The notes below the pieces were generated by a model. It had not been told where the DNA came from and did not search any database. It saw only the letters and a program-made list of their open reading frames with translations. DNA of 61,512 nucleotides, the filler included, from Nitrospinae bacterium RIFCSPLOWO2_12_FULL_45_22 (lineage in GTDB: Bacteria > 2-12-FULL-45-22): NCBI GenBank assembly GCA_001803565.1. It is 5 parts of 5 records of this genome, joined end to end, with 100 filler letters (N's around TTAATTAATTAA, not from the genome) between each part and the next. Parts side by side here need not be neighbours in the genome. Positions count along the whole stretch, not along the records: positions 20,836 to 45,999 come from MHDQ01000251.1; 4 more parts are not named here. The stretch is one strand, 5' to 3'. This document shows, piece after piece, positions 20,836 to 47,069 of this stretch. The first letter of the stretch is position 1. Every line of letters starts with the position of its first letter. The translations under genes and the position numbers were made by a program.

Positions 20836-22029
20836 CCTTTGTCGGAATTATTCAAGCAAGGCAAGCAAGAGGACCCAGCGGAATTTGGACGCACAGTAGA
20901 CCATACCTTTCATACAATAGCGGTTCTTAACCAGATATCTCAACAGTGCTTTACTGAAAGCGGGTTGAATCAGGATGAACTACAACCGGTATACACTTTA
21001 ACCGACTCTATGACGAGTAACAGTCCTTTAATTATGCCCCTGATACTATGGCTGCATGATATAGGCAAGATACGGGATAAACGTCACCACACGGAAAAGG
21101 GTGCCGAACTACTTTCCTCAATGGAATTAATGAAGGGCTGGGGGATGGATCAGGCATTGGTCTTGCTGATTACCAAAGTAATCCAATATCATCTGCTGGT
21201 AGGAACTTTGTATTCGGGAGAGATATCCTATTTATCGTTTCGGATCATGATCGAGGACCATGAATTTATTCCTATCTTACAAGATTCCAGGCTGCGGGAG
21301 TTATTTATTGATGCCTTAATCCTCTTCACGATGATTGATATCTGGGGTTATCCCTATAATTCTCAAGCCATTTCGGCGGCCATGATCAGAAATTATCTCA
21401 GTATTGCCCAAGAGTTGCGTTATGTTTTAGGACGGGGCGAGGATAAAAAGGAAACTAATGGCCGGTTGGTAAGTATTGCTCAACAATCAACAGACTGGAG
21501 GCTGGCCTGCTATCTCAGGGCCTTTTCTCATCTGGGCACCAAACCTTATCTGACGCCCGAGTTCTATCAGGAGAAATTGATTCAGGGGGCAGGCGTATTT
21601 TTGGGCACATCCCTGAGCCGTAATGCCTGGTTGGTTTTTAAAAATGAGCGCCTGGATAAGTTCTATCAAATTCAGTTTAAATATGCCCTGGGGCTGCTAT
21701 GTCTTCTTTCCTTTGAAAGCTTAGAAAATTTTCGCCAGGGCTGTATCCCTGAAACCCAGGTGAATCCCAATCTATTTAAGCTTTTGGTCCTTTTAAACGA
21801 TATACTAAAAACCCAGGAAAGGGTCTATGGCTTACCGGGAGATTGCCTCTGGGAGGTCTATTTTACTGGTACCCCCATCTGGACCCGTAAGTCTAATATT
21901 TTTGAGCAGCTCAATAGGCCTGGAATCCTGGAAGAAATAGTGTCCCAGGCCAAGATAAAGGGAGGGGAGAACCACTTGGCCTGGTCCTTTTATTTAGATT
22001 TCCAACCTTATTGGAAATTCGCTGACTAA
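20836..22029 (+). CDS. HD-domain protein (5' partial), function unknown
   Basis: DHT...LHDIGK...HH..KG...YHL...D pattern. Confidence 0.7.
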   Translation, partial: PLSELFKQGKQEDPAEFGRTVDHTFHTIAVLNQISQQCFTESGLNQDELQPVYTLTDSMTSNSPLIMPLILWLHDIGKIRDKRHHTEKGAELLSSMELMKGWGMDQALVLLITKVIQYHLLVGTLYSGEISYLSFRIMIEDHEFIPILQDSRLRELFIDALILFTMIDIWGYPYNSQAISAAMIRNYLSIAQELRYVLGRGEDKKETNGRLVSIAQQSTDWRLACYLRAFSHLGTKPYLTPEFYQEKLIQGAGVFLGTSLSRNAWLVFKNERLDKFYQIQFKYALGLLCLLSFESLENFRQGCIPETQVNPNLFKLLVLLNDILKTQERVYGLPGDCLWEVYFTGTPIWTRKSNIFEQLNRPGILEEIVSQAKIKGGENHLAWSFYLDFQPYWKFAD

Positions 22030-35306: not shown

Positions 35307-36845
35307 ATGCCTGAGCTGATCAAATTTTCTATTCCCTTGCTCTCCCTTACCCTCTTTATCCCTTTGCTGGGCGCAGTAATCATAATGCTCTTTATCCCCA
35401 AGCAGCGCACTAGCCTGATAAAATGGTTCGCCTTTATTATTAGTGTAATAGACTTTCTGGTTTCATTGCCCCTGGTGAAATACTTTGACCCCAGCACTAA
35501 TGCTATGCAATTCGTTGAGCAACATTCCTGGATACCCTCTATCGGTGTAGAGTACTTTCTCGGTATAGATGGCATAAGCATCCTGCTGGTGATGTTAACT
35601 ACTTTATTGACCGCTGTTTCAGTGCTCTGTTCTTTTATGGCTATTGATTATCGAGAAAAGGAATTCTATGTCTGCCTGCTCTTGTTATCTACGGGTATGT
35701 TGGGGGTCTTTATGGCCCTTGATTTTTTCCTCTTTTATGTCTTCTGGGAAGTGATGCTGGTGCCTATGTATTTCCTTATTGGCGTATGGGGTGGTGGCCG
35801 GAAGTTGTACTCAGCCATAAAATTCTTCCTCTATACCCTCTTTGGTAGCGTGATCATGCTCTTAGGTATCCTTACCCTCTATTTCCTGACGCCCGAGCCC
35901 CATACTTTCAATATCCTAAAGATGACCTATGAACTAAACATACCCGAGGGGTTGCAGAAATGGCTTTTCCTGGCCTTCTTTATCGGGTTTGCCATTAAAG
36001 TGCCTATGTTTCCCTTCCATACCTGGTTACCCGATGCCCATACCGATGCCCCTACCGCGGGCAGTGTGATCCTGGCTGGGGTATTGTTGAAGATGGGTAC
36101 CTATGGCTTTGTACGCTTTAACTTGCCTATGTTCCCGGAAGCCAGTCATTTCTTCGTGCCCTTTATGGCAGTACTGGCTATTATCGGGATTATTTATGGT
36201 GCCTTAGTAGCCATGGCGCAGGAAGATGTGAAGAGGTTGGTAGCTTATTCCAGTGTGAGCCACCTGGGCTTTGTCATGTTGGGTATCTTTGCCTTGAACC
36301 CCCAGGGTATTGTCGGTGGCATGCTCCAGATGATCAACCATGGCCTTAGTACCGGGGGCTTGTTCTTGTTGGTAGGGATAATTTATGAGCGACGTCATAC
36401 CCGGATGATTAGCGATTTTGGTGGATTATCCCACCGGCTCCCCATCTTTTCCACCCTCTTTGCCATTACCATGCTCTCTTCCATCGGTCTACCAGGATTG
36501 AATGGCTTTGTAGGGGAATTTCTGATCCTGCTGGGGGTATTTAAGGCCACCTATATCTATGCCGTTTTTGGTGTAACCGGTATTATATTAGGGGCGGCTT
36601 ATATGCTCTGGCTGTATCAACGGATGATGTTTGGCAGTCTGGATAAGCCGGAAAACCAAAAACTGAAGGACTGTAATCTCAGAGAAATAATCTATATGGT
36701 CTCTCTGATTATCTTTATGTTCTGGATTGGGCTCTATCCCAAGCCCTATTTAAATATAATGGGGCCCACAGTAGACAAGTTAGTAGAGCGAGTCAATCCC
36801 GCTTATTTCCAAACTGCCCAACAGAGCCCCCTACCCCAAAAATGA
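35307..36845 (+). CDS. nuoM: NADH-quinone oxidoreductase subunit M
   Basis: FYVFWE, K.PMFPFHTWLPDAH, LLKMGTYG, AYSSVSH, GFVGEF. Confidence 0.97.
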   Translation: MPELIKFSIPLLSLTLFIPLLGAVIIMLFIPKQRTSLIKWFAFIISVIDFLVSLPLVKYFDPSTNAMQFVEQHSWIPSIGVEYFLGIDGISILLVMLTTLLTAVSVLCSFMAIDYREKEFYVCLLLLSTGMLGVFMALDFFLFYVFWEVMLVPMYFLIGVWGGGRKLYSAIKFFLYTLFGSVIMLLGILTLYFLTPEPHTFNILKMTYELNIPEGLQKWLFLAFFIGFAIKVPMFPFHTWLPDAHTDAPTAGSVILAGVLLKMGTYGFVRFNLPMFPEASHFFVPFMAVLAIIGIIYGALVAMAQEDVKRLVAYSSVSHLGFVMLGIFALNPQGIVGGMLQMINHGLSTGGLFLLVGIIYERRHTRMISDFGGLSHRLPIFSTLFAITMLSSIGLPGLNGFVGEFLILLGVFKATYIYAVFGVTGIILGAAYMLWLYQRMMFGSLDKPENQKLKDCNLREIIYMVSLIIFMFWIGLYPKPYLNIMGPTVDKLVERVNPAYFQTAQQSPLPQK

Positions 36846-37363: not shown

Positions 37364-37873
37364 ATGAAAGCACTTGTCCCTGTAGAATTGATTGAAAGAA
37401 AACTCCTGCTGATCCGAGGCAAAAAGGTTATGCTAGATGCAGACCTTGCTGGGCTTTACGGTGTGGAGGTGAAACAGCTAAAAAGGCAGGTCAGACGAAA
37501 TATAGGACGTTTTCCAGCAGATTTCATGATCCAATTATCAAAAGAAGAATATGAATCTTTAAGGCGCCATTTTGGCGCCTTAAAAAGAGGCGAGCATTCC
37601 AAATACATGCCCTATGCCTTTACCGAGCAAGGGGTCGCTATGCTTTCCTGTGTTTTGAACAGTGAAAGGGCCGTAAAGGTAAACATAGAGATTATGCGGG
37701 CATTTGTCAGACTCAGACAGATGCTTGCCTCAAATGCCGAACTGGCGTGTAAACTCGACGCTCTTGAAAAGAAATACGATATGCAGTTCAAAGTCGTCTT
37801 TGACGCAATCCGGCAATTGATGACTCCGCCGGAGACGAAGAAAAAGAAAATTCGGAGGGAAGAAGAAAAATGA
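37364..37873 (+). CDS. ORF6N-domain DNA-binding protein
   Basis: [54 protein letters not shown]. Confidence 0.9.
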
Positions 37874-37899
37874 TTTGGAGAACTTGAAGGGGTTGAGGC

Positions 37900-39160
37900 A
37901 TGGCTTTTAAAGTTAATGAACTTACATCAGGAAGGTTTAACCTTCCATCAGAATGGAGTATAGTCAAAGTTCGAGACGTAGCAAAAATCAATGGGTCAAG
38001 CATACAAAGAAACTATAATCATGAATGGATTGAATATATTGATATCGCATCCGTTGAAAAAGGAACTATCAAATCGCTTCAAGTGTTACCATTAAAAGAA
38101 GCCCCAAGTCGAGCCAGGAGAATTGTCCAAGATAATGACATATTAATTTCTTCTGTTAGGCCAAATCTTGAACATTACGTTTTCATTAAGAAGGCTAAAC
38201 CAAATACAGTCGCGTCAACTGGGTTTGCTGTTATAACTCCAAAAAATGTACAACCTCGTTTTTTGTATTACTATTTAACAACAAAACCATTCACAAATTA
38301 TTTGACGATAATTGCAGAAAGCCATACATCTGCATATCCATCATTTAATCCTGATGTAATTGAAAATTCTGAATTAATCTTACCAAGTGAAGTAGAACAA
38401 AAAGCCATTGCACACATCCTCGGCGATTTGGATGATAAGATTGAACTGAACAGAAAAATAAACGAGACCCTGGAGGCTATGGCAAGAGCAATATTCAAAT
38501 CATGGTTTGTTGATTTTGATCCCATCCCTGGCCTCGGCCCGCATAAAGAATGGCAGGACTCACCCCTTGGGAAGATCCCCAAAGGGGTGGAGGGTGGGTT
38601 CGCTCGGAGAACTATGTGAAATTGTTATGGGTCAATCGCCACCTGGTGAAACATATAATGAGATGGGCGAAGGGCTACCTTTCTATCAAGGAATTCGTGA
38701 CTTTGGTTTTCGCTTTCCTTCAAGGCGTGTTTATTGTAATGCTCCAACCAGATTAGCTAACGAGGGCGATGTGCTTCTGAGTGTTCGTGCACCGGTAGGA
38801 AGTCTAAACATTTCAAGCGAAAAATGTGCAATAGGTCGAGGTGTCGCCTCATTAAGAATAAACGGACAGCACTACGGATTCTTGTATTATCTTATGAAAG
38901 AAACCCAATGGGGATGGGAGAAATATGAGGCTGAAGGCACGGTTTTTGGCTCAGCTACTAAGAAAGACGTTCAAAATTTCTCTACTATCCTTCCACCCAC
39001 ACAGACTATTTCTCGTTTCAACGAAGCGGTTTTTTCAATAGACCAAATGATCAGTAACAATGAAATACAATCCCGTACCCTTGCTGCTATCCGTGATGCA
39101 TTACTGCCGAAGCTATTGTCAGGGGAGATAAGGGTGAAGGATACGGAGAAGTCGCTATGA
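37900..39160 (+). pseudogene. hsdS: type I RM specificity subunit, frameshifted by 1-bp insertion near 38581-38587
   Basis: TRD1 + EQKAIAHIL..LDDKIELN...FKSWFVDF; IPKG|WRVG split between frames; TRD2 ending RDALLPKLLSGEIRV. Confidence 0.9.
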
Positions 39161-39936
39161 GTATTCTGAGTTATTTCGATCATGTCAATAATGGTTGTTT
39201 TATTCTTAAATTGCAACCAAAAGAAAGGGATGCGTTTTTATCGAAACTCCCCAACAAGTATAGAAAGTGCTATATAACAGATCAAAAAATAGAGGAATTA
39301 CTTTCAAGGCATAACGGAAATATTTCTGCCAAGAAAATTATCCAAAGCAAAATTCCAGACCCAGGTAGTGTAATGGCTGGAGACTTCGGGGAAATTACAG
39401 CGTATTTCATACTTAAAGGAAAATACCTTCCAATAAAGTTGTTCGGACCTAAGAAATGGCGATGGAAGAATGATAGAAATAAGGCGCTTCTGTTCACAGA
39501 TGTAATAATGTTTGATAGAAATGATACACCCTCCGAAAAGGATTTAGTTGTGTTAGCTGAAGTAAAGACAAAATCAACGAAGAGAACTAAGAACCCAATT
39601 CAACAGGCAATAGAAGGAGTTCAAAAGGACTATGTTTCACGATTTTCTCGCACTTTAATCTGGTTAAAGGATATATACACAAGCGTCGCCCCAAATGCCG
39701 CAAGAATTGAATATCTCGACAGATTCATTAATTCTCAAGAGGATAAATACGGGAAATACACAAAGCATTTTAAAGCAGTTGCTATTATAGACAGTTCATT
39801 TCTTGATAATGATTTAGAAGAAAATATCGAAGACCTTGAAATAGAAGATGATTTTGAGGTTATCGTGATCTCTATAGATGACCTAAAAACGGCATATGAA
39901 TCCACTTATAAGACGATGCTACAAACATATGAATAG
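39157..39936 (+). CDS. hamA: Hachiman HamA-like (DUF1837) nuclease
   Basis: GDFGE, D...E.K (FTDV...LAEVKT) PD-(D/E)xK-like pattern; directly upstream of SF2 helicase. Confidence 0.75.
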   Translation: MSILSYFDHVNNGCFILKLQPKERDAFLSKLPNKYRKCYITDQKIEELLSRHNGNISAKKIIQSKIPDPGSVMAGDFGEITAYFILKGKYLPIKLFGPKKWRWKNDRNKALLFTDVIMFDRNDTPSEKDLVVLAEVKTKSTKRTKNPIQQAIEGVQKDYVSRFSRTLIWLKDIYTSVAPNAARIEYLDRFINSQEDKYGKYTKHFKAVAIIDSSFLDNDLEENIEDLEIEDDFEVIVISIDDLKTAYESTYKTMLQTYE

Positions 39937-39945
39937 GGTCAGCAT

Positions 39946-42939
39946 ATGAGAAAAAACTTAAAGCTGTGGATAGCTCAATCTGAATCCTGGCACACTTTTG
40001 TTGATTTTAGATTGCCGGAAAAGGCTATCGCAAAATATCCATTCTTGGAACGTACAGATGATTTCTACATTGCCCTCTTTGGTAAACTTTTTGACCTTCT
40101 AAATGATCCAAAATTTGAAGAAAAGAAAGATGACCTTCTTGCTATAGGGAAAGGCTTGGAAATTTATTCTCTTAAAAGTACAAGAAATAAGTTTAGAGGA
40201 GTCAATTATTCCGAGAATATCCTGTATGCTGCAAGCCTTTACTATCTGGCAGACTATTCTGCATCAGCATGGCTCTTGGCAAACCTTTTCTCTGCAAATC
40301 AATATGGTTCAGATGCCGATAAATTCATTTCATGTTTCTTGAGCCGCAACATTCAGGTAGATAATGCTTACGTCTCACAACTTCGCAAATATTTGCACAG
40401 AGGAGACATAACTATTTTAGATGAAATGCGGGAGACGTTTTCTCAAAGAACTAAAGACGCTCTCAAGGACTCACCTCATGAATATACGTTTTACAAATTA
40501 GCATCTTGTCTAATCGATCGCTTCTATACGAATAATATTTGGATTGATTTATTAGGGCAAAATCACTATGAACCACAAGTATGGAAGAAATATGTTGAAG
40601 CAAATCTAAAGCGGAAGCCGCCAGTTTGGGATTTCTTTCCTTCGCAGAAGGAGGCCATAAACAGAGGAATACTAAAAGAAAATAAATCTTTTTCTTTTCA
40701 GATGCCTACCAGTGCTGGCAAAACTGCTCTTTGCGAGTTAATCATTTATAATGAAAAGAGAATGAATCCAGATGCAAAAATATTATTCCTTGCTCCTTTT
40801 CGCGCTCTGGCATCGGAATTGAAATCTGGCTTTAGTAAAAAGATTGCTCAGTTAGGAATTAAGTCAAAAACTATTTACGGGGGCAATATAGTTACTCAGG
40901 ATGAAAAAAAAGCCATACAAAAAGTAGACCTTCTAATCTCAACCCCAGAAAAATTTATGGCAGTGGAAAGTTTTATACCTGACATTTACGAGTTGTTTCA
41001 GGTAATCATCTGTGACGAAGGACATCTACTTGACAACGAGCAAAGGGGTTTAAATTATGAGATCTTACTCTCTAAGTTTAGAAGTCCATCAGTAGGCGAA
41101 AAGAAATTCATATTTTTATCCGCCATAATTCCCAATATAGAAGAAATAAACACTTGGCTGGGTGGGGATCAAACTTCCTTAGTAAAGTCAGAATATAGGC
41201 CAACAGAGCTGAACTTTGCCTTCCTCAAACAAGGAAATGATAAAACCTATTATTTGGATGTCAATCCCACAAAAGGAAGACCTGAGAATTATCAAATATC
41301 TAAATTTTTGTCTAAAATAGATTTCCAATACATTAATCCGGCGACAAATCGGAAAAAGACATATCCTTTTAGTAGCATCAAAGCAAGAGCAGTTGCTTCT
41401 GCCCTAAAAGCTGTGCCGTCGGGGACAGTTGCACTATTTGCCCCTCAAAAAGGTCAAGGGGGCGTGTCCGGATTGGCAGAAGAAGTCATTAAGCAGGTTG
41501 ATAAATTGTCATTGCCTAATCCTGCAAATTACTCGTCAAGCTCGGTAGCATTACTAAAAGAGTACTGTGAAAAGCTTTTTGGAAAAGAATATCTGCTCAC
41601 TAGGCTGATTGATTATGGCGCTGTATTTCATCATGGGGATCTGCCACAGGATGTTCACGAAGCAATAGAGGATTCACTGCGCGATGGTAGTGTAAGACTT
41701 ATTATCTGCACAAATACCTTAGCTGAAGGAGTTAATCTGCCAATAAGAACGATAGTTGTCCATTCAGCTAAAAGATTTGATTATGAGTCGAAAAGATTAG
41801 TGGACATGGAAATAAGAGATTTAAAAAACATTACAGGCAGAGCTGGTAGAGCTGGTAAAGAAACTAAGGGATTCATAATAATTACAAATCCAACAGATTT
41901 CAATACAGCTAAGAAGGTAATAAAAGATGAGGGCGGCAACAATGTTACAGGATTTTTATACAAAATAGTCCATGCTGTGGCAAAGTTTGTTCAGGACAAA
42001 AGGCTGACCTTATCAAATGACATTTTAGATGAACAGAATGAGCGGTTTAAACAATTGATTGATTCAATAGATATCTCCCTAATTAGTTTAATGGCTGAGG
42101 AAATCGAGACCGAGAAACTTAGAGAGCATATCAACACTCTAGTAGAGCAAACATTTGCCTTTCGGCAGGCAAATGTTGATGAAAAAAAGGCTTTGCGGGA
42201 CATATTCAACCTTCGAGGTGATGTCCTAAGGCCATATGTAGAATCAAAGGAATATCGAACCATCAAAAAGAGTGGGGCATCAGTAAGACTATATAAGAGC
42301 GTTCTTGATTCGATAGACTTAGAGGATGAATTATGGCGAGCAACCAACGACCCAGTATCAGAAACATGGTTACAGGTGATAAAAGACAATGTTCTTGCGC
42401 TTCCTCAGCCAAAATTTAGCATAGAGGAATTCAACAAATATAATGGAACTAATCTCTCGTCCGACGATATTATTAAGATAATTAAACTCTGGATTAAAGG
42501 TCATGCATATAAGGATATCGCGGACAAATCACAAATAGAAGTTGATACAATTCTTAAGATATTTTCTTCATTAATTGGGTTCCATCTGCAAAGCATCATC
42601 TCAAGCATTATTAGAATAGCCGACAGCAAATTATTAGAAAAGGACAAAAATCTGTCGGAAACTTTGTCATATTGGCCACAATATTTGCTTTACGGCTTAA
42701 AAAATAGACTGGAATTAGACCTCGTAGAACTTGGATTCACCAATAGAATCGGCATTATGGCGCTGAGCGAGGCGATCAAAGACGAAGGATTTACCTATGC
42801 CGAACTCAAAAAGCTAAGAGACTACATAAAGAGAAATAGTGATCATCTTTTTGAGAGAATCGGTTCTTCGATACCTAAAATATCTTATGAAAAACTAAAG
42901 GAAACCGTCGATTATTTAAATCGGAAGAATATTCATTGA
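39946..42939 (+). CDS. hamB: Hachiman HamB-like Ski2-type SF2 helicase
   Basis: PTSAGKT, TPEK, DEGH, LSA, HHGDL, TNTLAEGVNLP, N..GRAGR; long N-terminal helical region. Confidence 0.78.
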   Translation: MRKNLKLWIAQSESWHTFVDFRLPEKAIAKYPFLERTDDFYIALFGKLFDLLNDPKFEEKKDDLLAIGKGLEIYSLKSTRNKFRGVNYSENILYAASLYYLADYSASAWLLANLFSANQYGSDADKFISCFLSRNIQVDNAYVSQLRKYLHRGDITILDEMRETFSQRTKDALKDSPHEYTFYKLASCLIDRFYTNNIWIDLLGQNHYEPQVWKKYVEANLKRKPPVWDFFPSQKEAINRGILKENKSFSFQMPTSAGKTALCELIIYNEKRMNPDAKILFLAPFRALASELKSGFSKKIAQLGIKSKTIYGGNIVTQDEKKAIQKVDLLISTPEKFMAVESFIPDIYELFQVIICDEGHLLDNEQRGLNYEILLSKFRSPSVGEKKFIFLSAIIPNIEEINTWLGGDQTSLVKSEYRPTELNFAFLKQGNDKTYYLDVNPTKGRPENYQISKFLSKIDFQYINPATNRKKTYPFSSIKARAVASALKAVPSGTVALFAPQKGQGGVSGLAEEVIKQVDKLSLPNPANYSSSSVALLKEYCEKLFGKEYLLTRLIDYGAVFHHGDLPQDVHEAIEDSLRDGSVRLIICTNTLAEGVNLPIRTIVVHSAKRFDYESKRLVDMEIRDLKNITGRAGRAGKETKGFIIITNPTDFNTAKKVIKDEGGNNVTGFLYKIVHAVAKFVQDKRLTLSNDILDEQNERFKQLIDSIDISLISLMAEEIETEKLREHINTLVEQTFAFRQANVDEKKALRDIFNLRGDVLRPYVESKEYRTIKKSGASVRLYKSVLDSIDLEDELWRATNDPVSETWLQVIKDNVLALPQPKFSIEEFNKYNGTNLSSDDIIKIIKLWIKGHAYKDIADKSQIEVDTILKIFSSLIGFHLQSIISSIIRIADSKLLEKDKNLSETLSYWPQYLLYGLKNRLELDLVELGFTNRIGIMALSEAIKDEGFTYAELKKLRDYIKRNSDHLFERIGSSIPKISYEKLKETVDYLNRKNIH

Positions 42940-43592
42940 AAATGAAAAACTCTTATCGCTACGATACATCCTCTCTCCCCGAAGCCCAGTTTGAGCCGGG
43001 CTCACATGGCCGCGTCCTCAAGAACAAGCTCGGCATAAAGAGCAAAAAGGACATGGACGAGGTTGAATCGGTTGCCCTTAAAACCGCTATAGATAATCTT
43101 CTCGGAATATACGATGAGCACCACTGTTTTACGGCAGCGGACATTAGAACAATGCATAAAGTCTGGCTTGGTGAAATTTATGAGTGGGCAGGTGAATACA
43201 GGCAGGTTAATGTGAGCAAAGGGGATTTTCCTTTTGCTGCTGCAAAGCAGATTCCATTTTTAATGGCAGAATTTGAAAAAGGTCATCTCCACAAGCATAC
43301 ACCCTGCAATTTCAAATCGTTAGAGCGAGTTATTCAGGCGCTGGCAGAGGTTCATGTTGAACTTGTCCTTATTCATCCATTCCGTGAAGGCAATGGCAGG
43401 GTTGCAAGAATACTCTCGACCATTATGGCATTTCAGGCAGGCTTGCCGATGCTGAACTTTAAAGATATTACACACAGAAAAAAGAAGGAGTATTTTACCG
43501 CAATCAACAGAGGCTTGAGCAGGGACTATAAACCAATGGAAATACTTTTTGAGAAAATCATTGAGAGGTCTATCAAATCTAAGTCCGTTTAG
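42936..43592 (+). CDS. Fic-domain AMPylase, class I (no internal inhibitory motif seen)
   Basis: HPFREGNGRVAR canonical motif; VLKNKLGI; YEWAGEYR. Confidence 0.93.
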   Translation: MKMKNSYRYDTSSLPEAQFEPGSHGRVLKNKLGIKSKKDMDEVESVALKTAIDNLLGIYDEHHCFTAADIRTMHKVWLGEIYEWAGEYRQVNVSKGDFPFAAAKQIPFLMAEFEKGHLHKHTPCNFKSLERVIQALAEVHVELVLIHPFREGNGRVARILSTIMAFQAGLPMLNFKDITHRKKKEYFTAINRGLSRDYKPMEILFEKIIERSIKSKSV

Positions 43593-43740
43593 ATTTAAGG
43601 TTCTTTTTGAGGAGTTGAGAGGGCGTTATACGAATACCTTCAACTGCAGAAGAGGTTATAACATTTGTAACTAATGAAGCCTCGTATTTTTTAGAGTCTT
43701 TCAAATACGGGTTTGTTTCTTTCAATGACTTCTTTTTCAT
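43579..43740 (-). CDS. 53-aa FicA/VbhA-like antitoxin candidate (not in ORF track)
   Basis: hand translation MKKKSLKETNPYLKDSKKYEASLVTNVITSSAVEGIRITPSQLLKKNLKSKRT*; SSAVEG = (S/T)xxxE(G/N). Confidence 0.75.
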   Translation of the reverse strand: MKKKSLKETNPYLKDSKKYEASLVTNVITSSAVEGIRITPSQLLKKNLKSKRT

Positions 43741-43746
43741 GTTTTT

Positions 43747-43775
43747 ATGATACTAAAACAAAAAGAAAAAATCAA
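43747..43775 (-). promoter_or_regulatory. sigma70 promoter for leaderless antitoxin mRNA
   Basis: TTGATT-17bp-TATCAT-AAAAAC-ATG; no Shine-Dalgarno. Confidence 0.6.
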
Positions 43776-43847
43776 AGAAAAAACTGGATTCTTGCTGGAA
43801 TCCCGCACACTGATGCGGGGCAGGAATGACAGCTAATCAATGATAAA

Positions 43848-44297
43848 ATGAACAGAAACAATATAACCGAATCAGAAATAGAACAAGCAACCATTGAGTG
43901 GTTCAAGGAACTGAGATATTCCGTTCTTTTCGGCCCTGACATTTCGCCGGGTAGGGGCGAGGTGATCTCCCCTTTACAAGAGCGGGCAAGTTACAGCGAT
44001 GTTATCCTTGAAAACAGACTCCATTCTGCACTGATCAAAATCAATCCTGACATTCCTGGGGAAGCAATAGAAGATGCCTACCGGAAATTAACAAGAGCGA
44101 TCCATGAATCGCCCCTACTGGCTGCAAACAATCACCGGTTCCACAAAATGCTTACCGAGGGGATTGATGTTGAATACCAGGATGAAACCGGCAGGATTAT
44201 TGGAGATAAAGTGTGGCTGGTAGACTTTGATAATCCTGATAACAATAGCAAACTATCGGCTCACCCCCATATACATCCAAGCCAATTTACCCATTAG
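43848..44297 (+). pseudogene. hsdR: type I RM restriction subunit N-terminal fragment
   Basis: TES.IEQA..EWF.EL.Y...GPDI.P, N..FH.ML.EG..VEY, DFDNPDNN then resemblance stops (~44247); normal HsdR is ~1000 aa. Confidence 0.88.
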
Positions 44298-44322: not shown

Positions 44323-45999
44323 ATGCATAACGATTTTCCCGCTGAATATTATCAGTTGTTAAACAAGAAAGAAAACTTTGTCCTTTTAGAAACTTCTAGG
44401 TATGATAAGGAAAACTATAGGACTTTCTTATTTATTGATCCCCTCGAAACCCTTCAAGTATATTCCGCAGATGAGGCGCCTGATCTGTTTGCTAGAATCG
44501 AACAGTATTTAACCCAGGACTATTATCTGGCCGGGTATTTTGGCTATGAATGTGGCTATCATTTTGAACAGATTGCCGAAACTACAACTTCTAGTCATCC
44601 CATAGCCTGGTTTGGCGTTTATCATGAGCCAATAATCTTTAACCATTTAACTGGTACTTGGGAAAATTCTTGTCTAGAGGTTCTTAACCCCAGCTCAGAT
44701 GATAATTTTTTGTTGCACGAATACGAATTAAGCAATATCCGGCTCAATATTTCAAGGCAAGATTATTACCGGAAAATAGCCGATATAAAAAACTACATCC
44801 TTGCCGGAGATACCTATCAGGTAAATTTTACCGCTAAATATAACTTTGATTTCCAGGGCTCAGCCCTGGCTTTATATGAGACCTTAAAAAAGAAGCAAAG
44901 GATATCTTATGGCGCCTTTATAAACTCTAATGGTAAAAATATCTTGTGCTTCTCTCCTGAATTATTCTTCCGACTAAAGGACAACAAAATAATAACCAGA
45001 CCGATGAAGGGGACGGTAAAGAGAGGAAGAACCTGTGAGGAAGACCTGCTGTTACAGGATTGGTTGAGAACAGATGAGAAAAATAGAGCGGAAAATCTGA
45101 TGATTGTAGATTTACTAAGGAACGATTTGGGAAGAGTAGCCGAAGTTGGTTCAGTAAAAGTCAGGGAACTTTTTTCCGTAGAAAAATATCAGACATTATT
45201 TCAAATGACATCCACCATTGAAGGGAAGGCTCAGGAAGGATTAAGTTATTATGCCATATTCAAGAGTATTTTCCCCTCTGGTTCCGTTACTGGCGCCCCT
45301 AAGATTAGCTCCATGCAGATTATCCATGAACTAGAACCTCACAGGAGGGGCATTTATACTGGAGCGATTGGCTATTTTTCGCCGGCAAAAGAAGCCACAT
45401 TCAATGTGGCCATCCGGACCCTGGTAATTGATGAAAATAAGGGTAGAATGGGTATTGGGAGCGGGATTGTTTATGACTCGATTCCGGGGGATGAATATGC
45501 CGAGTGTGAATTAAAGGCACAATTTTTAACTGCTCCCCAGGAAGAGTTTGAATTAATAGAGACCATCTTGTGGGATAATGGTTATCGCTTACTGGAAAAA
45601 CATATAAATAGGATAAGCCAATCAGCGAAATATTTCGATTATCCTTGTGACATAAATAGCCTTATCTCTGGTCTTAGGGAAAACAGCCAGTCCTTCGTAA
45701 AAGGCAAGAGGTATAAAGTTAGGCTAAAGCTGAACCGCTATGGTGAGGCATCTTCTGAAAATATGGCAATTGATGAGGATTTAAAGTCGAATTCTGCCGT
45801 TATTATCCTGTCTAACCTGAGAACTGACTCCAATAATAAATTTCTCTACCATAAAACCACCAATAGACACCTTTATAATGAAATGTATCAGAAAGCTATA
45901 AACAATGGCTTTGCTGATATTATTTTTATGAATGAACGAGGGCAAATAACCGAAGGCGCTACCAGCAACATCTTTATAAAAAAAGATAATCACCTCATT
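44323..45999 (+). CDS. pabB: aminodeoxychorismate synthase component I fused to class IV aminotransferase/ADC lyase (3' truncated)
   Basis: GDTYQVN, SPELFF, PMKGT, ENLMIVDLLRND, FPSGSVTGAPK; then LIET, HKTTNR, ITEGATSNIF. Confidence 0.92.
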
Positions 46000-46099
46000 N
46001 NNNNNNNNNNNNNNNNNNNNNNNNNNNNNNNNNNNNNNNNNNNTTAATTAATTAANNNNNNNNNNNNNNNNNNNNNNNNNNNNNNNNNNNNNNNNNNNN
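46000..46099. other. artificial contig linker
   Basis: N44-TTAATTAATTAA-N44. Confidence 0.97.
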
Positions 46100-46100
46100 C

Positions 46101-47069
46101 ATTGCTGCTACTGCCACTGTCGCTGATATGGCATTACCCTTTGGCGCAGCCACCAATATCAAGGTTGAGATTGCGGATCTAGATGGAACCCTGGCCTCAA
46201 GCAGTGTTAATTATCAAGTAGTCAACCGGCAGCCAGTCGCTAACCCCGGTTCAAATCAGATAGTGAAAGGGAGCAGTACCGTAACCCTGGATGCTTCCAC
46301 CAGTAGTGACCCGGATGGTAACCCCCTGGCCTTTAGTTGGACCCAGACATCTGGGCCATCAGTCACATTGTCTAATGCCACCGCGCAGAAGCCCACCTTT
46401 ACTGCCCCAGAACCCAGTGACAATAATGTCCTGACCTTCCGCCTGATAGTCAATGATGGGACGGTAGACAGTAACCCCGCTAGCGTAAATATCCGCATAA
46501 ATCGCCCACCGGTAGCCGATGCTGGAGCAGACCAGAAGGTTAAGCCTTTTGATACCGTGACCCTTAACGGATCGAGCAGTAAAGACCCTGATGATGACCC
46601 TTTAACCGTAAAATGGCTCCAGACCGCTGGCCCGACTGTCACCCTCTCTCAGACTACTTCTATGAACCCAACTTTTGTCGCCCCTCGGGTAAGTGCGACA
46701 AATAATGTCTTAACGTTCCAGTTGATAGTCAATGATAGTACGGTGGATAGTGCGCCAGATACAGTAGATCTCAGTATAAATCGTTCACCTACCGCTAATG
46801 CCGGCTCAGACCAGACTGTAGAAGCATATGCATTGGTGACTCTGGATGGTTCTGGCAGTAGCGATCCAGATAGTGACCCATTGACCTATCAGTGGACCCA
46901 GATAGCCGGTACCACGGTAACTTTAGCCAATGCTACCGGGGCACTCCCCACCTTTTTTGCACCCCGGGCCAAGAGGGATGCCGTCCTGACTTTTTCATTG
47001 ATAGTAAATGATAGCTCAGCCAACAGTGAACCAGATGCGGTATCCATCACTATCCCCGGAAAGCCCTGA
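46101..47069 (+). CDS. PKD/K319L-like Ig-repeat surface protein (5' partial)
   Basis: three NRxPxAxAGxDQ..VTLD/NxSxSxDPD...WxQxxG...LTFxLIVND units. Confidence 0.85.
   Translation: MAATATVADMALPFGAATNIKVEIADLDGTLASSSVNYQVVNRQPVANPGSNQIVKGSSTVTLDASTSSDPDGNPLAFSWTQTSGPSVTLSNATAQKPTFTAPEPSDNNVLTFRLIVNDGTVDSNPASVNIRINRPPVADAGADQKVKPFDTVTLNGSSSKDPDDDPLTVKWLQTAGPTVTLSQTTSMNPTFVAPRVSATNNVLTFQLIVNDSTVDSAPDTVDLSINRSPTANAGSDQTVEAYALVTLDGSGSSDPDSDPLTYQWTQIAGTTVTLANATGALPTFFAPRAKRDAVLTFSLIVNDSSANSEPDAVSITIPGKP

Follow-up and report, generated by a model that had tools for sequence, protein, structure and literature searches.

A small convergent gene overlapping the fic 3′ end in a Nitrospinae bacterium, a likely antitoxin of a class-I-type Fic toxin

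As defined by Engel et al. 2012, whose classification is quoted in the excerpted text of PMC5033356, a class I Fic toxin (FicT) has the complete Fic motif including its second arginine, lacks an inhibitory helix of its own and is accompanied by a separate small protein with the inhibitory motif (FicA), whose gene lies immediately upstream of ficT. Canonical class I toxins also bear an N-terminal ‘DPY’ lock motif, according to the same excerpt of PMC5033356. For the pair Fic-1/AntF, residues S24 and E28 of AntF were found to contact R146 of Fic-1, the second Arg of the motif (PMC13327609, in excerpt). The available parts of PMC13327609, PMC5033356, PMC8401265 and PMC5651007 all place the Fic antitoxin upstream, and no convergent or downstream Fic antitoxin was found described in the literature searched, a search whose scope left out Engel et al. 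2012 and Harms et al. 2015. The locus considered here is arranged differently. It lies in a stretch of 61,512 nucleotides (nt), hereafter the window, from Nitrospinae bacterium RIFCSPLOWO2_12_FULL_45_22 (GCA_001803565.1), within positions 20836–45999 (MHDQ01000251.1), and consists of a fic toxin gene and a 53-residue (53-aa) open reading frame (ORF) that converges on fic and overlaps its 3′ end. This ORF is likely to encode the antitoxin of the adjacent Fic protein; the two would then make up a FicTA pair of class I type whose antitoxin family is new and whose gene order is inverted.

The fic gene occupies positions 42942–43592 of the plus strand (216 aa; stop TAG at 43590–43592). Its ATG at 42942 was favoured, by its fit to homologue N-termini, over a TTG at 42936 that would overlap the hamB stop. 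The FIC active-site motif, HPFREGNGRVAR, was read from the sequence at 43374–43409 (plus strand) and extends from H145 to R156. The small ORF runs on the minus strand at 43579–43740 (ATG at 43740, stop at 43581–43579) and encodes MKKKSLKETNPYLKDSKKYEASLVTNVITSSAVEGIRITPSQLLKKNLKSKRT, in which SSAVEG, residues 30–35 (S30-S-A-V-E34-G35; codons at 43636–43653, minus strand), corresponds to the inhibitory motif (S/T)xxxE(G/N). The two genes share their 3′ coding ends over 14 bp at 43579–43592, read on both strands. The minus-strand ORF, its SSAVEG string and the 14-bp overlap had been pointed out in an initial annotation of this DNA, and all were confirmed from the sequence.

Being short and of low complexity at either end, and belonging to no Pfam, NCBIfam or PADLOC family, the ORF could be suspected of being a chance antisense frame or an annotation artefact. 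No model of these three collections matched the small protein, the sole trace being Fic_N (E = 0.069), whose match covers the profile part aligned with the motif region. Against the suspicion stand the conservation of the protein, its two-way linkage to fic, its codon-position pattern and the RefSeq calls of its homologues. A word-indexed search returned 122 homologues of 44–78 aa, all unnamed or hypothetical, and a 30-member profile of the protein gave 1230 matches at E ≤ 1e-3, 328 of them at E ≤ 1e-10, among 1.84 billion cluster representatives. Residues L6, N10, S30 and E34 were invariant across 30 sequences, and the pattern S-x3-E was found in 115 of 120 and in 134 of 148 further homologues. 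Among 11 close homologues, variable columns at codon positions 1, 2 and 3 numbered 26, 11 and 45, respectively, of 49 each, with no in-frame stop in the small-ORF frame versus 6–67 in the other five frames. RefSeq annotation calls the homologous small ORF in plasmids and in E. coli chromosomes. These observations indicate that the 53-aa ORF is a genuine protein-coding gene; a chance frame, refuted by the conservation next to fic, the invariant residues and the coding signature, retains practically no probability.

The linkage of the two genes was evident from both sides. Among 42 genome loci collected with the Fic protein (Fic identity 40–84%; Nitrospirota, Planctomycetota, Pseudomonadota, Thermodesulfobacteriota, Verrucomicrobiota, Kiritimatiellota, Armatimonadota and others), a homologous convergent ORF was present at the fic 3′ end in 35, or in 35 of the 37 with room for one. 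The prediction that such an ORF would be conserved downstream of Fic homologues was thus borne out, in at least seven phyla. Five of the seven misses were loci ending 0–94 nt past fic, and the other two held a C-terminally truncated Fic (L024) and a 27-residue Fic fragment (L042). The overlap of the two genes ranged from 6 to 73 bp across related loci with intact Fic. A second set, seeded with the small protein as a single-protein query, comprised 22 metagenome loci, of which L047 is the same contig as the genome locus L001; Fic lay opposite the small ORF in 18 of the 22 (13 of them full length), or in 18 of 19 with room, and three misses were loci that stop 9–73 nt beyond the ORF. An orphan small ORF was observed in L054, with no Fic within 3 kb of available sequence. 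The third set consisted of 80 Fic loci from viral contigs, scanned for convergent and upstream ORFs. Where Fic was at least 36% identical to the window's (15 loci), a convergent ORF of the ASSTAIETG type was always present and an upstream candidate always missing; 28 loci with more distant Fic proteins carried a canonical upstream co-directional FicA (S[LM]RLEG and others) and no convergent ORF, and none had both. Eleven upstream FicA proteins from the viral loci (alignment A3) were compared with Pfam, 4 matching YhfG and 3 matching VbhA, so the scan recognises ordinary FicA genes, which served as a positive control.

Searches of other collections gave fewer matches. Of the 2 genomes of the phylum in the collection, the other had no match to the pair; the phage collection yielded distant Fic proteins of at most 32% identity; and a tblastn search of plasmids with the window's small protein gave no match. 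Plasmid homologues were reached through Fic, and their small proteins were linked to the window family by hhalign with a probability of 84.7% (pNDM-CIT). In this plasmid (NC_019360.1, 185578–186347) a Fic protein about 40% identical to the window's is accompanied by a convergent 52-aa ‘hypothetical protein’, ASSTAIETGAPV. Pairs of the pNDM-CIT type adjoin an integrase on large Enterobacterales plasmids and were also present in 27 of 5426 complete E. coli genomes. On the Fic tree, antitoxins with E-T instead of E-G formed one clade (11 rows, 1 change, support 90/98), and phyla were intermixed, which points to horizontal spread of the pair as a unit. In several loci the toxin has decayed and the small ORF is intact, with internal fic stops in L004 and L032 and Fic fragments in L049, L050 and L064. 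The viral contigs L120 (1928–3162) and L121 encode a longer Fic of 346 aa with HPFEDGNGR, about 30% identical to the window's, and a convergent 65-aa ORF with RASFSLEGN that overlaps the Fic stop by 4 bp; because they share the arrangement, the tail-to-tail layout may have arisen more than once or may be older than the window's clade.

A tail-to-tail layout with overlapping 3′ ends would also suit a minus-strand unit whose chief function is that of an antisense RNA to the 3′ end of fic, in the manner of type I systems, with the ORF incidental. Of 30 loci, 5 had an intrinsic terminator within 300 nt downstream of the fic stop and 3 had one downstream of the small-ORF stop, and in the window neither stop is followed by one; as they are so rare, the fic and small-ORF transcripts should overlap. 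Protein-level selection is nevertheless clear in the codon-position pattern of the small ORF, its invariant residues are kept among small proteins of 27–81% identity in a family of 1230 cluster representatives, and on a Marinomonas plasmid fic and the small gene are separated by a 14-nt gap without any overlap. A purely antisense RNA reading was rejected on the codon-position evidence, and a unit that is an antisense RNA in the main is considered extremely improbable.

The interpretation of the small protein as an antitoxin draws also on its partner. The window Fic matched Pfam Fic PF02661 (E = 4e-19) and the PADLOC PDC-S04 model PDLC04839 (E = 4e-75, positions 3–203 of 205), and its nearest NCBIfam models, E. 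coli Fic, VbhT and NmFic, all scored below their cut-offs. A Fic profile compared with solved structures ranked Fic-1 first (8wt0_A, E = 9e-25) and VbhT next (3shg, E = 2e-21), the alignment with Fic-1 spanning residues 17–214 with no extra domain. The AlphaFold2 model of Fic (predicted local distance difference test, pLDDT, of 83) gave EcFicT/EcFicA, BepC, VbhT/VbhA and Fic-1/AntF as best structural matches (E = 3e-9 for 5jff and 8e-9 for 3shg). The motif HPFRxGNGRxxR (H145, P, F, R, G, N, G, R153 and R156) was invariant in 28 Fic homologues, and R146 of Fic-1 is equivalent to R156 of the window Fic. The pattern [ST]xxxE[GN] was absent from 26 of the 28 Fic sequences, including the window's, and the two matches were non-conserved N-terminal strings. 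An upstream FicA-like ORF bearing the motif was not found in 29 of 30 loci, and in the window that place is taken by hamB. Because Fic itself lacks the motif and no FicA-like ORF lies upstream, the small ORF is the only candidate supplier of the inhibitory helix. The toxin thus has the complete motif with its second R, no inhibitory helix of its own and a separate small motif protein adjoining it, the departure from class I being that the small gene lies downstream on the opposite strand and not immediately upstream. By its sequence features the window Fic is an active-site-competent, class-I-like Fic.

Several results weigh against assigning the small protein to the Fic antitoxins. The residue after the motif Glu was G in 18, T in 11 and S in 1 of the 30 family members, so that 12 of 30 have T or S where the known motif has G or N. 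The small protein and all 30 members gave no match at E ≤ 1 to Pfam VbhA (PF18495) or YhfG (PF10832), and the antitoxin profile had 0 matches at E ≤ 10 among PDB sequences. Alignment of the family with hhalign gave a probability of 0.6% against YhfG and of 25.5% (E = 7.5e-4, 20 columns round the motif) against 11 canonical FicA proteins. A fused Fic-antitoxin protein was not found either, the 22 longer family proteins of 122–272 aa having no Fic domain. Finally, defence by PDC-S04 is called never previously verified in the excerpt of bioRxiv 10.1101/2024.12.20.629700, and the only published test of PDC-S04 that was found, in the same excerpt, showed no defence; this test may have used another Fic subfamily or a clone without the small gene.

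Other comparisons were neutral or in keeping with the assignment. The low-probability hhalign alignments placed the motifs of YhfG and of the 11 FicA proteins in register with S30–E34. In its AlphaFold2 model (pLDDT 75) the small protein forms a helix at residues 16–34 ending at E34, a loop, and a second helix at 40–52, a predicted layout that agrees with the description of FicA in the excerpted text of PMC8401265. YhfG was the nearest named Atlas cluster (0.82), which is taken as a lead only. With the 53-aa model as query, Foldseek matched no PDB structure at E ≤ 10 and a wide VIA-align search gave generic helical hairpins (best Z of 4.1), neither result being informative. Homology of the small-protein family to VbhA or YhfG is not demonstrable by these sequence comparisons, and the pair was therefore filed as FicTA-like, outside the ficA-ficT operon family. 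The antitoxin assignment draws on the invariant motif, the class-I-like partner and the linkage of the two genes.

The expression signals of the small gene were also conserved. Its ORF is preceded on the minus strand, at 43747–43775, by a promoter-like sequence recognised in the sequence and by a promoter scan, consisting of TTGATT (43775–43770), 17 nt, TATCAT (43752–43747) and the 6 nt AAAAAC before the ATG, and no GGAG-like Shine-Dalgarno element lies in this gap. The initial annotation had described the same promoter without a Shine-Dalgarno element, placing the ATG 7 nt after the -10 box; its description stands, and the geometry was found to be conserved across loci. When a -10 box was counted as TAnnnT with at least five of six matches to TATAAT, it ended 6 nt before the small-ORF start in 19 of 35 genome loci, 5 nt before it in 3 and 7 nt in 1 (23 of 35 altogether), and at each other spacing from 0 to 29 nt in 0–1 of the 35. 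Seven genome loci without such a box had a Shine-Dalgarno-like element instead. In the metagenome set the box stood at 5–7 nt in all 21 resolvable loci, at 6 nt in 12 of them. The distant plasmid members (pNDM-CIT and the Marinomonas plasmid) have a short leader with a Shine-Dalgarno element, and the leaderless form is hence a feature of the clade that includes the window. In that clade the small ORF is probably expressed as a leaderless transcript, as the conserved geometry suggests. A terminator-like hairpin with a T-run was detected in the scan just upstream of the antitoxin -35 (43786–43803, minus strand) and is a possible insulator or terminator. On the fic side, no conserved promoter was found upstream of fic in related loci; the start codons were mixed (ATG, GTG, TTG and one CTG), and fic frequently adjoins the co-directional gene before it or overlaps with it.

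By analogy with VbhA/VbhT, EcFicA/EcFicT and AntF/Fic-1, the motif helix of the antitoxin would dock on Fic, and Glu34 would pair with R156, preventing productive ATP binding. Unbound Fic would be able to AMPylate a target in the cell, most probably GyrB/ParE, as the nearest relatives Fic-1 and VbhT do, and the Fic-antitoxin complex may double as a de-AMPylase, as the Fic-1–AntF complex does. The antitoxin would be supplied from its own strong promoter on a leaderless mRNA, given the conserved geometry, and the toxin from whatever host operon holds the cassette, hamAB in the window and hsd genes elsewhere; weak or non-ATG fic starts would keep the antitoxin in excess. The pair would probably serve in stress- or phage-triggered growth arrest or as an island-stabilising module. 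The GyrB/ParE target, proposed by analogy, and a role in abortive defence are speculative, as are mutual antisense control and transcriptional interference between the two genes.

It is also conceivable that the small protein is mainly a switch subunit, the complex with Fic being a working de-AMPylase and thus a reversible regulator, an idea compatible with the antitoxin reading. Fic-1, the closest solved relative of the window Fic, is reported together with AntF to de-AMPylate GyrB with a requirement for the motif Glu (PMC13327609, in excerpt), and in the window's family both motif residues, Ser and Glu, are invariant, as is R156 of Fic. For this family the switch is argued by analogy, and the decay of the toxin with retention of the small gene fits an antidote better than an obligate holoenzyme. 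A mainly switch-like function is held to be possible and rather unlikely, and the antitoxin reading is retained as the preferred one.

Upstream of fic, and on the same strand, lie hamA (39157–39936; PADLOC HamA1, E = 2e-69) and hamB (39946–42939; PADLOC HamB1, E = 0), whose stop is separated from the fic ATG by 2 nt. Co-transcription of fic with hamB is plausible from this spacing, in this window only. A wastewater run that is labelled RNA-Seq, although its RNA status is a guess, contains a 228-nt contig identical to the hamB-fic junction at 42907–43132; should this contig be RNA, hamB and fic share a transcript. No contig of possible RNA origin covered the small ORF or its start. The match also places the organism or the cassette outside groundwater and soil. 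The initial annotation had given the layout a rationale, namely that the toxin is co-transcribed with hamAB and the antitoxin supplied separately. A layout coupling Fic to Hachiman as a toxin effector with an accessory role would draw on the 2-nt spacing in the window and, weakly, on the contig of guessed RNA status, yet hamA and hamB were missing by tblastn from all 42 related genome loci, where the neighbours of the pair change from locus to locus. With hamA or hamB beside the pair in 0 of 42 loci, the hamAB link was not borne out as the rationale of the layout; the hamAB-coupled design was rejected on this ground, and a coupling to Hachiman is very unlikely. The pair travels without hamAB elsewhere, and the adjacency in the window is therefore regarded as an accident of insertion. 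Fic and the small ORF do not count as members of Hachiman, though HamA and HamB of the window are genuine. What stands of the earlier interpretation as a Fic antitoxin is the genuine convergent and overlapping gene, its invariant S-x3-E and the leaderless geometry; the part that fell is the link to hamAB.

The neighbours of the pair were diverse. Type I restriction-modification (R-M) genes flank it in L001, L003, L008, L009, L017, L023 and the window, with a full-length hsdR after the pair in L001, L003 and L023. Other neighbours were an RloC-like PDC-S06, a DRT reverse transcriptase, an HNH nuclease, a TOTE PrimPol and a type IIG enzyme, and some loci sit among housekeeping genes, with MFS transporters and panC among the neighbours. 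An immediate neighbour recognised by PADLOC (E ≤ 1e-10) was present in 12 of 42 loci. In these contexts the pair behaves as an autonomous two-gene cassette. In R-M-embedded copies (L001, 4799–4824; L003, 4814–4835) the antitoxin start was observed about 20–25 nt from the hsdR start, a distance that would put the antitoxin promoter inside the hsdR 5′ end and make hsdR expression cross the antitoxin gene head-on.

In the window the cassette lies in the remains of a type I R-M locus. An ORF6N gene (PDC-S05) and an hsdS split in two frames occupy 37364–39160 on the plus strand, the two overlapping hsdS frames being at 37900–38619 and 38507–39160. An N-terminal hsdR fragment of 149 aa follows the pair at 43848–44297 on the same strand (Pfam HSDR_N, E = 5e-18, profile positions 2–111 of 198), and directly after it a pabB-pabC-like fusion gene begins at 44323. 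The hsdM gene is absent from this locus, the ORF6N gene coming next after the end of nuoM at 36845. From its gene content, the segment 37364–44297 is a type I R-M locus in decay, in which the island is embedded. The accessory genes inside it (ORF6N/PDC-S05, hamAB, fic and the antitoxin gene) look intact. The source assembly is 85% complete and in 321 contigs, and positions 20836–45999 of the window correspond to contig C251, followed by a run of N. As the window joins several contigs, features on either side of 46000 (20836–45999 and 46003–46127) do not make an established neighbourhood.

A further proposal, tentative and considered improbable, is that the overlapping, terminator-less layout is a regulatory device and that an NPYL segment of the antitoxin acts as a lock on Fic. 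The leaderless antitoxin mRNA and the transcript that reads through from the host operon into fic, whether hsd genes or hamAB precede it, may be mutually antisense, and the antitoxin supply may be set by collision and duplex formation with the toxin-carrying operon. If this were true, the pair would follow a hybrid type I/type II toxin-antitoxin logic that senses transcription of the surrounding defence operon. In the antitoxin the invariant N10 and the near-invariant L13 lie in a (T/S)NPYL segment (residues 10–13; window 43701–43713), which was not seen in the canonical FicA sequences of alignment A3. The segment resembles the ‘DPY’ lock of canonical class I Fic toxins. At residues 14–21 this Fic clade has E-A-Q-F-E-P-G-S, presumably at the position that corresponds to that lock. 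The lock, a cis element in canonical class I toxins, might in this pair come in trans from the antitoxin NPYL, and one 53-aa protein would then place a double lock on Fic.

The layout has consequences for how such pairs are found and tested. Searches for type II toxin-antitoxin systems and the definition of class I Fic proteins assume a co-directional two-gene operon, a rule from which the window's clade departs conservedly and because of which its antitoxin has been left unnamed. Despite its 1230 cluster representatives, the antitoxin is a ‘hypothetical protein’ where it is annotated at all. As PDC-S04 is in reality a two-gene module, a defence screen that clones Fic without the convergent gene may meet with toxicity or be misled. 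Ordinary hosts would suffice for testing the pair, since relatives occur on large Enterobacterales plasmids and in the E. coli genomes noted above. The promoter-to-start geometry, shared across phyla, offers a natural model for leaderless antitoxin expression and for convergent transcription inside operons such as hsdS-...-hsdR.

Among described systems, the pair is most similar to Fic-1/AntF of Pseudomonas bijieensis 2P24 (PDB 8WT0), with which it shares a small single-domain Fic, the motif HPFx(D/E)GNGRxxR and a separate mini-protein with S-x3-E. In contrast to the present small gene, which lies downstream of fic, converges on it and overlaps it, antF is directly upstream of fic-1 on the same strand in the excerpted text of PMC13327609. 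The target of Fic-1 is GyrB Y111, and for the window Fic a GyrB/ParE target is proposed by analogy. VbhT/VbhA of Bartonella schoenbuchensis and EcFicT/EcFicA of E. coli (fic/yhfG) are structural matches in which inhibition is exerted in trans through (S/T)xxxE(G/N); unlike the present pair, they are operons with the antitoxin first (PMC5033356, in excerpt). The Fic protein is a full-length match to the PADLOC model PDC-S04 and sits in R-M and defence contexts in 12 of 42 related loci, but PDC-S04 is catalogued as a single-gene phage-defence candidate and a conserved second gene accompanies Fic here. No PADLOC model matches the small protein, so PDC-S04 as catalogued is missing its second gene. 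Convergent, 3′-overlapping toxin-antitoxin genes are known from the type I loci txpA/RatA and bsrG/SR4 of Bacillus subtilis, in which a non-coding RNA serves as antitoxin against a small membrane peptide. The present locus has in common with them the tail-to-tail arrangement, the overlapping 3′ ends and the complementary transcripts that these imply, and differs in that both partners are proteins under selection. Leaderless genes such as lambda cI transcribed from PRM and the toxin-antitoxin operons of Mycobacterium tuberculosis have a -10 box about 6–7 nt before the start and no Shine-Dalgarno element. Unlike these, the putative leaderless antitoxin gene described here is a single convergent cistron, and its geometry is conserved across several phyla.

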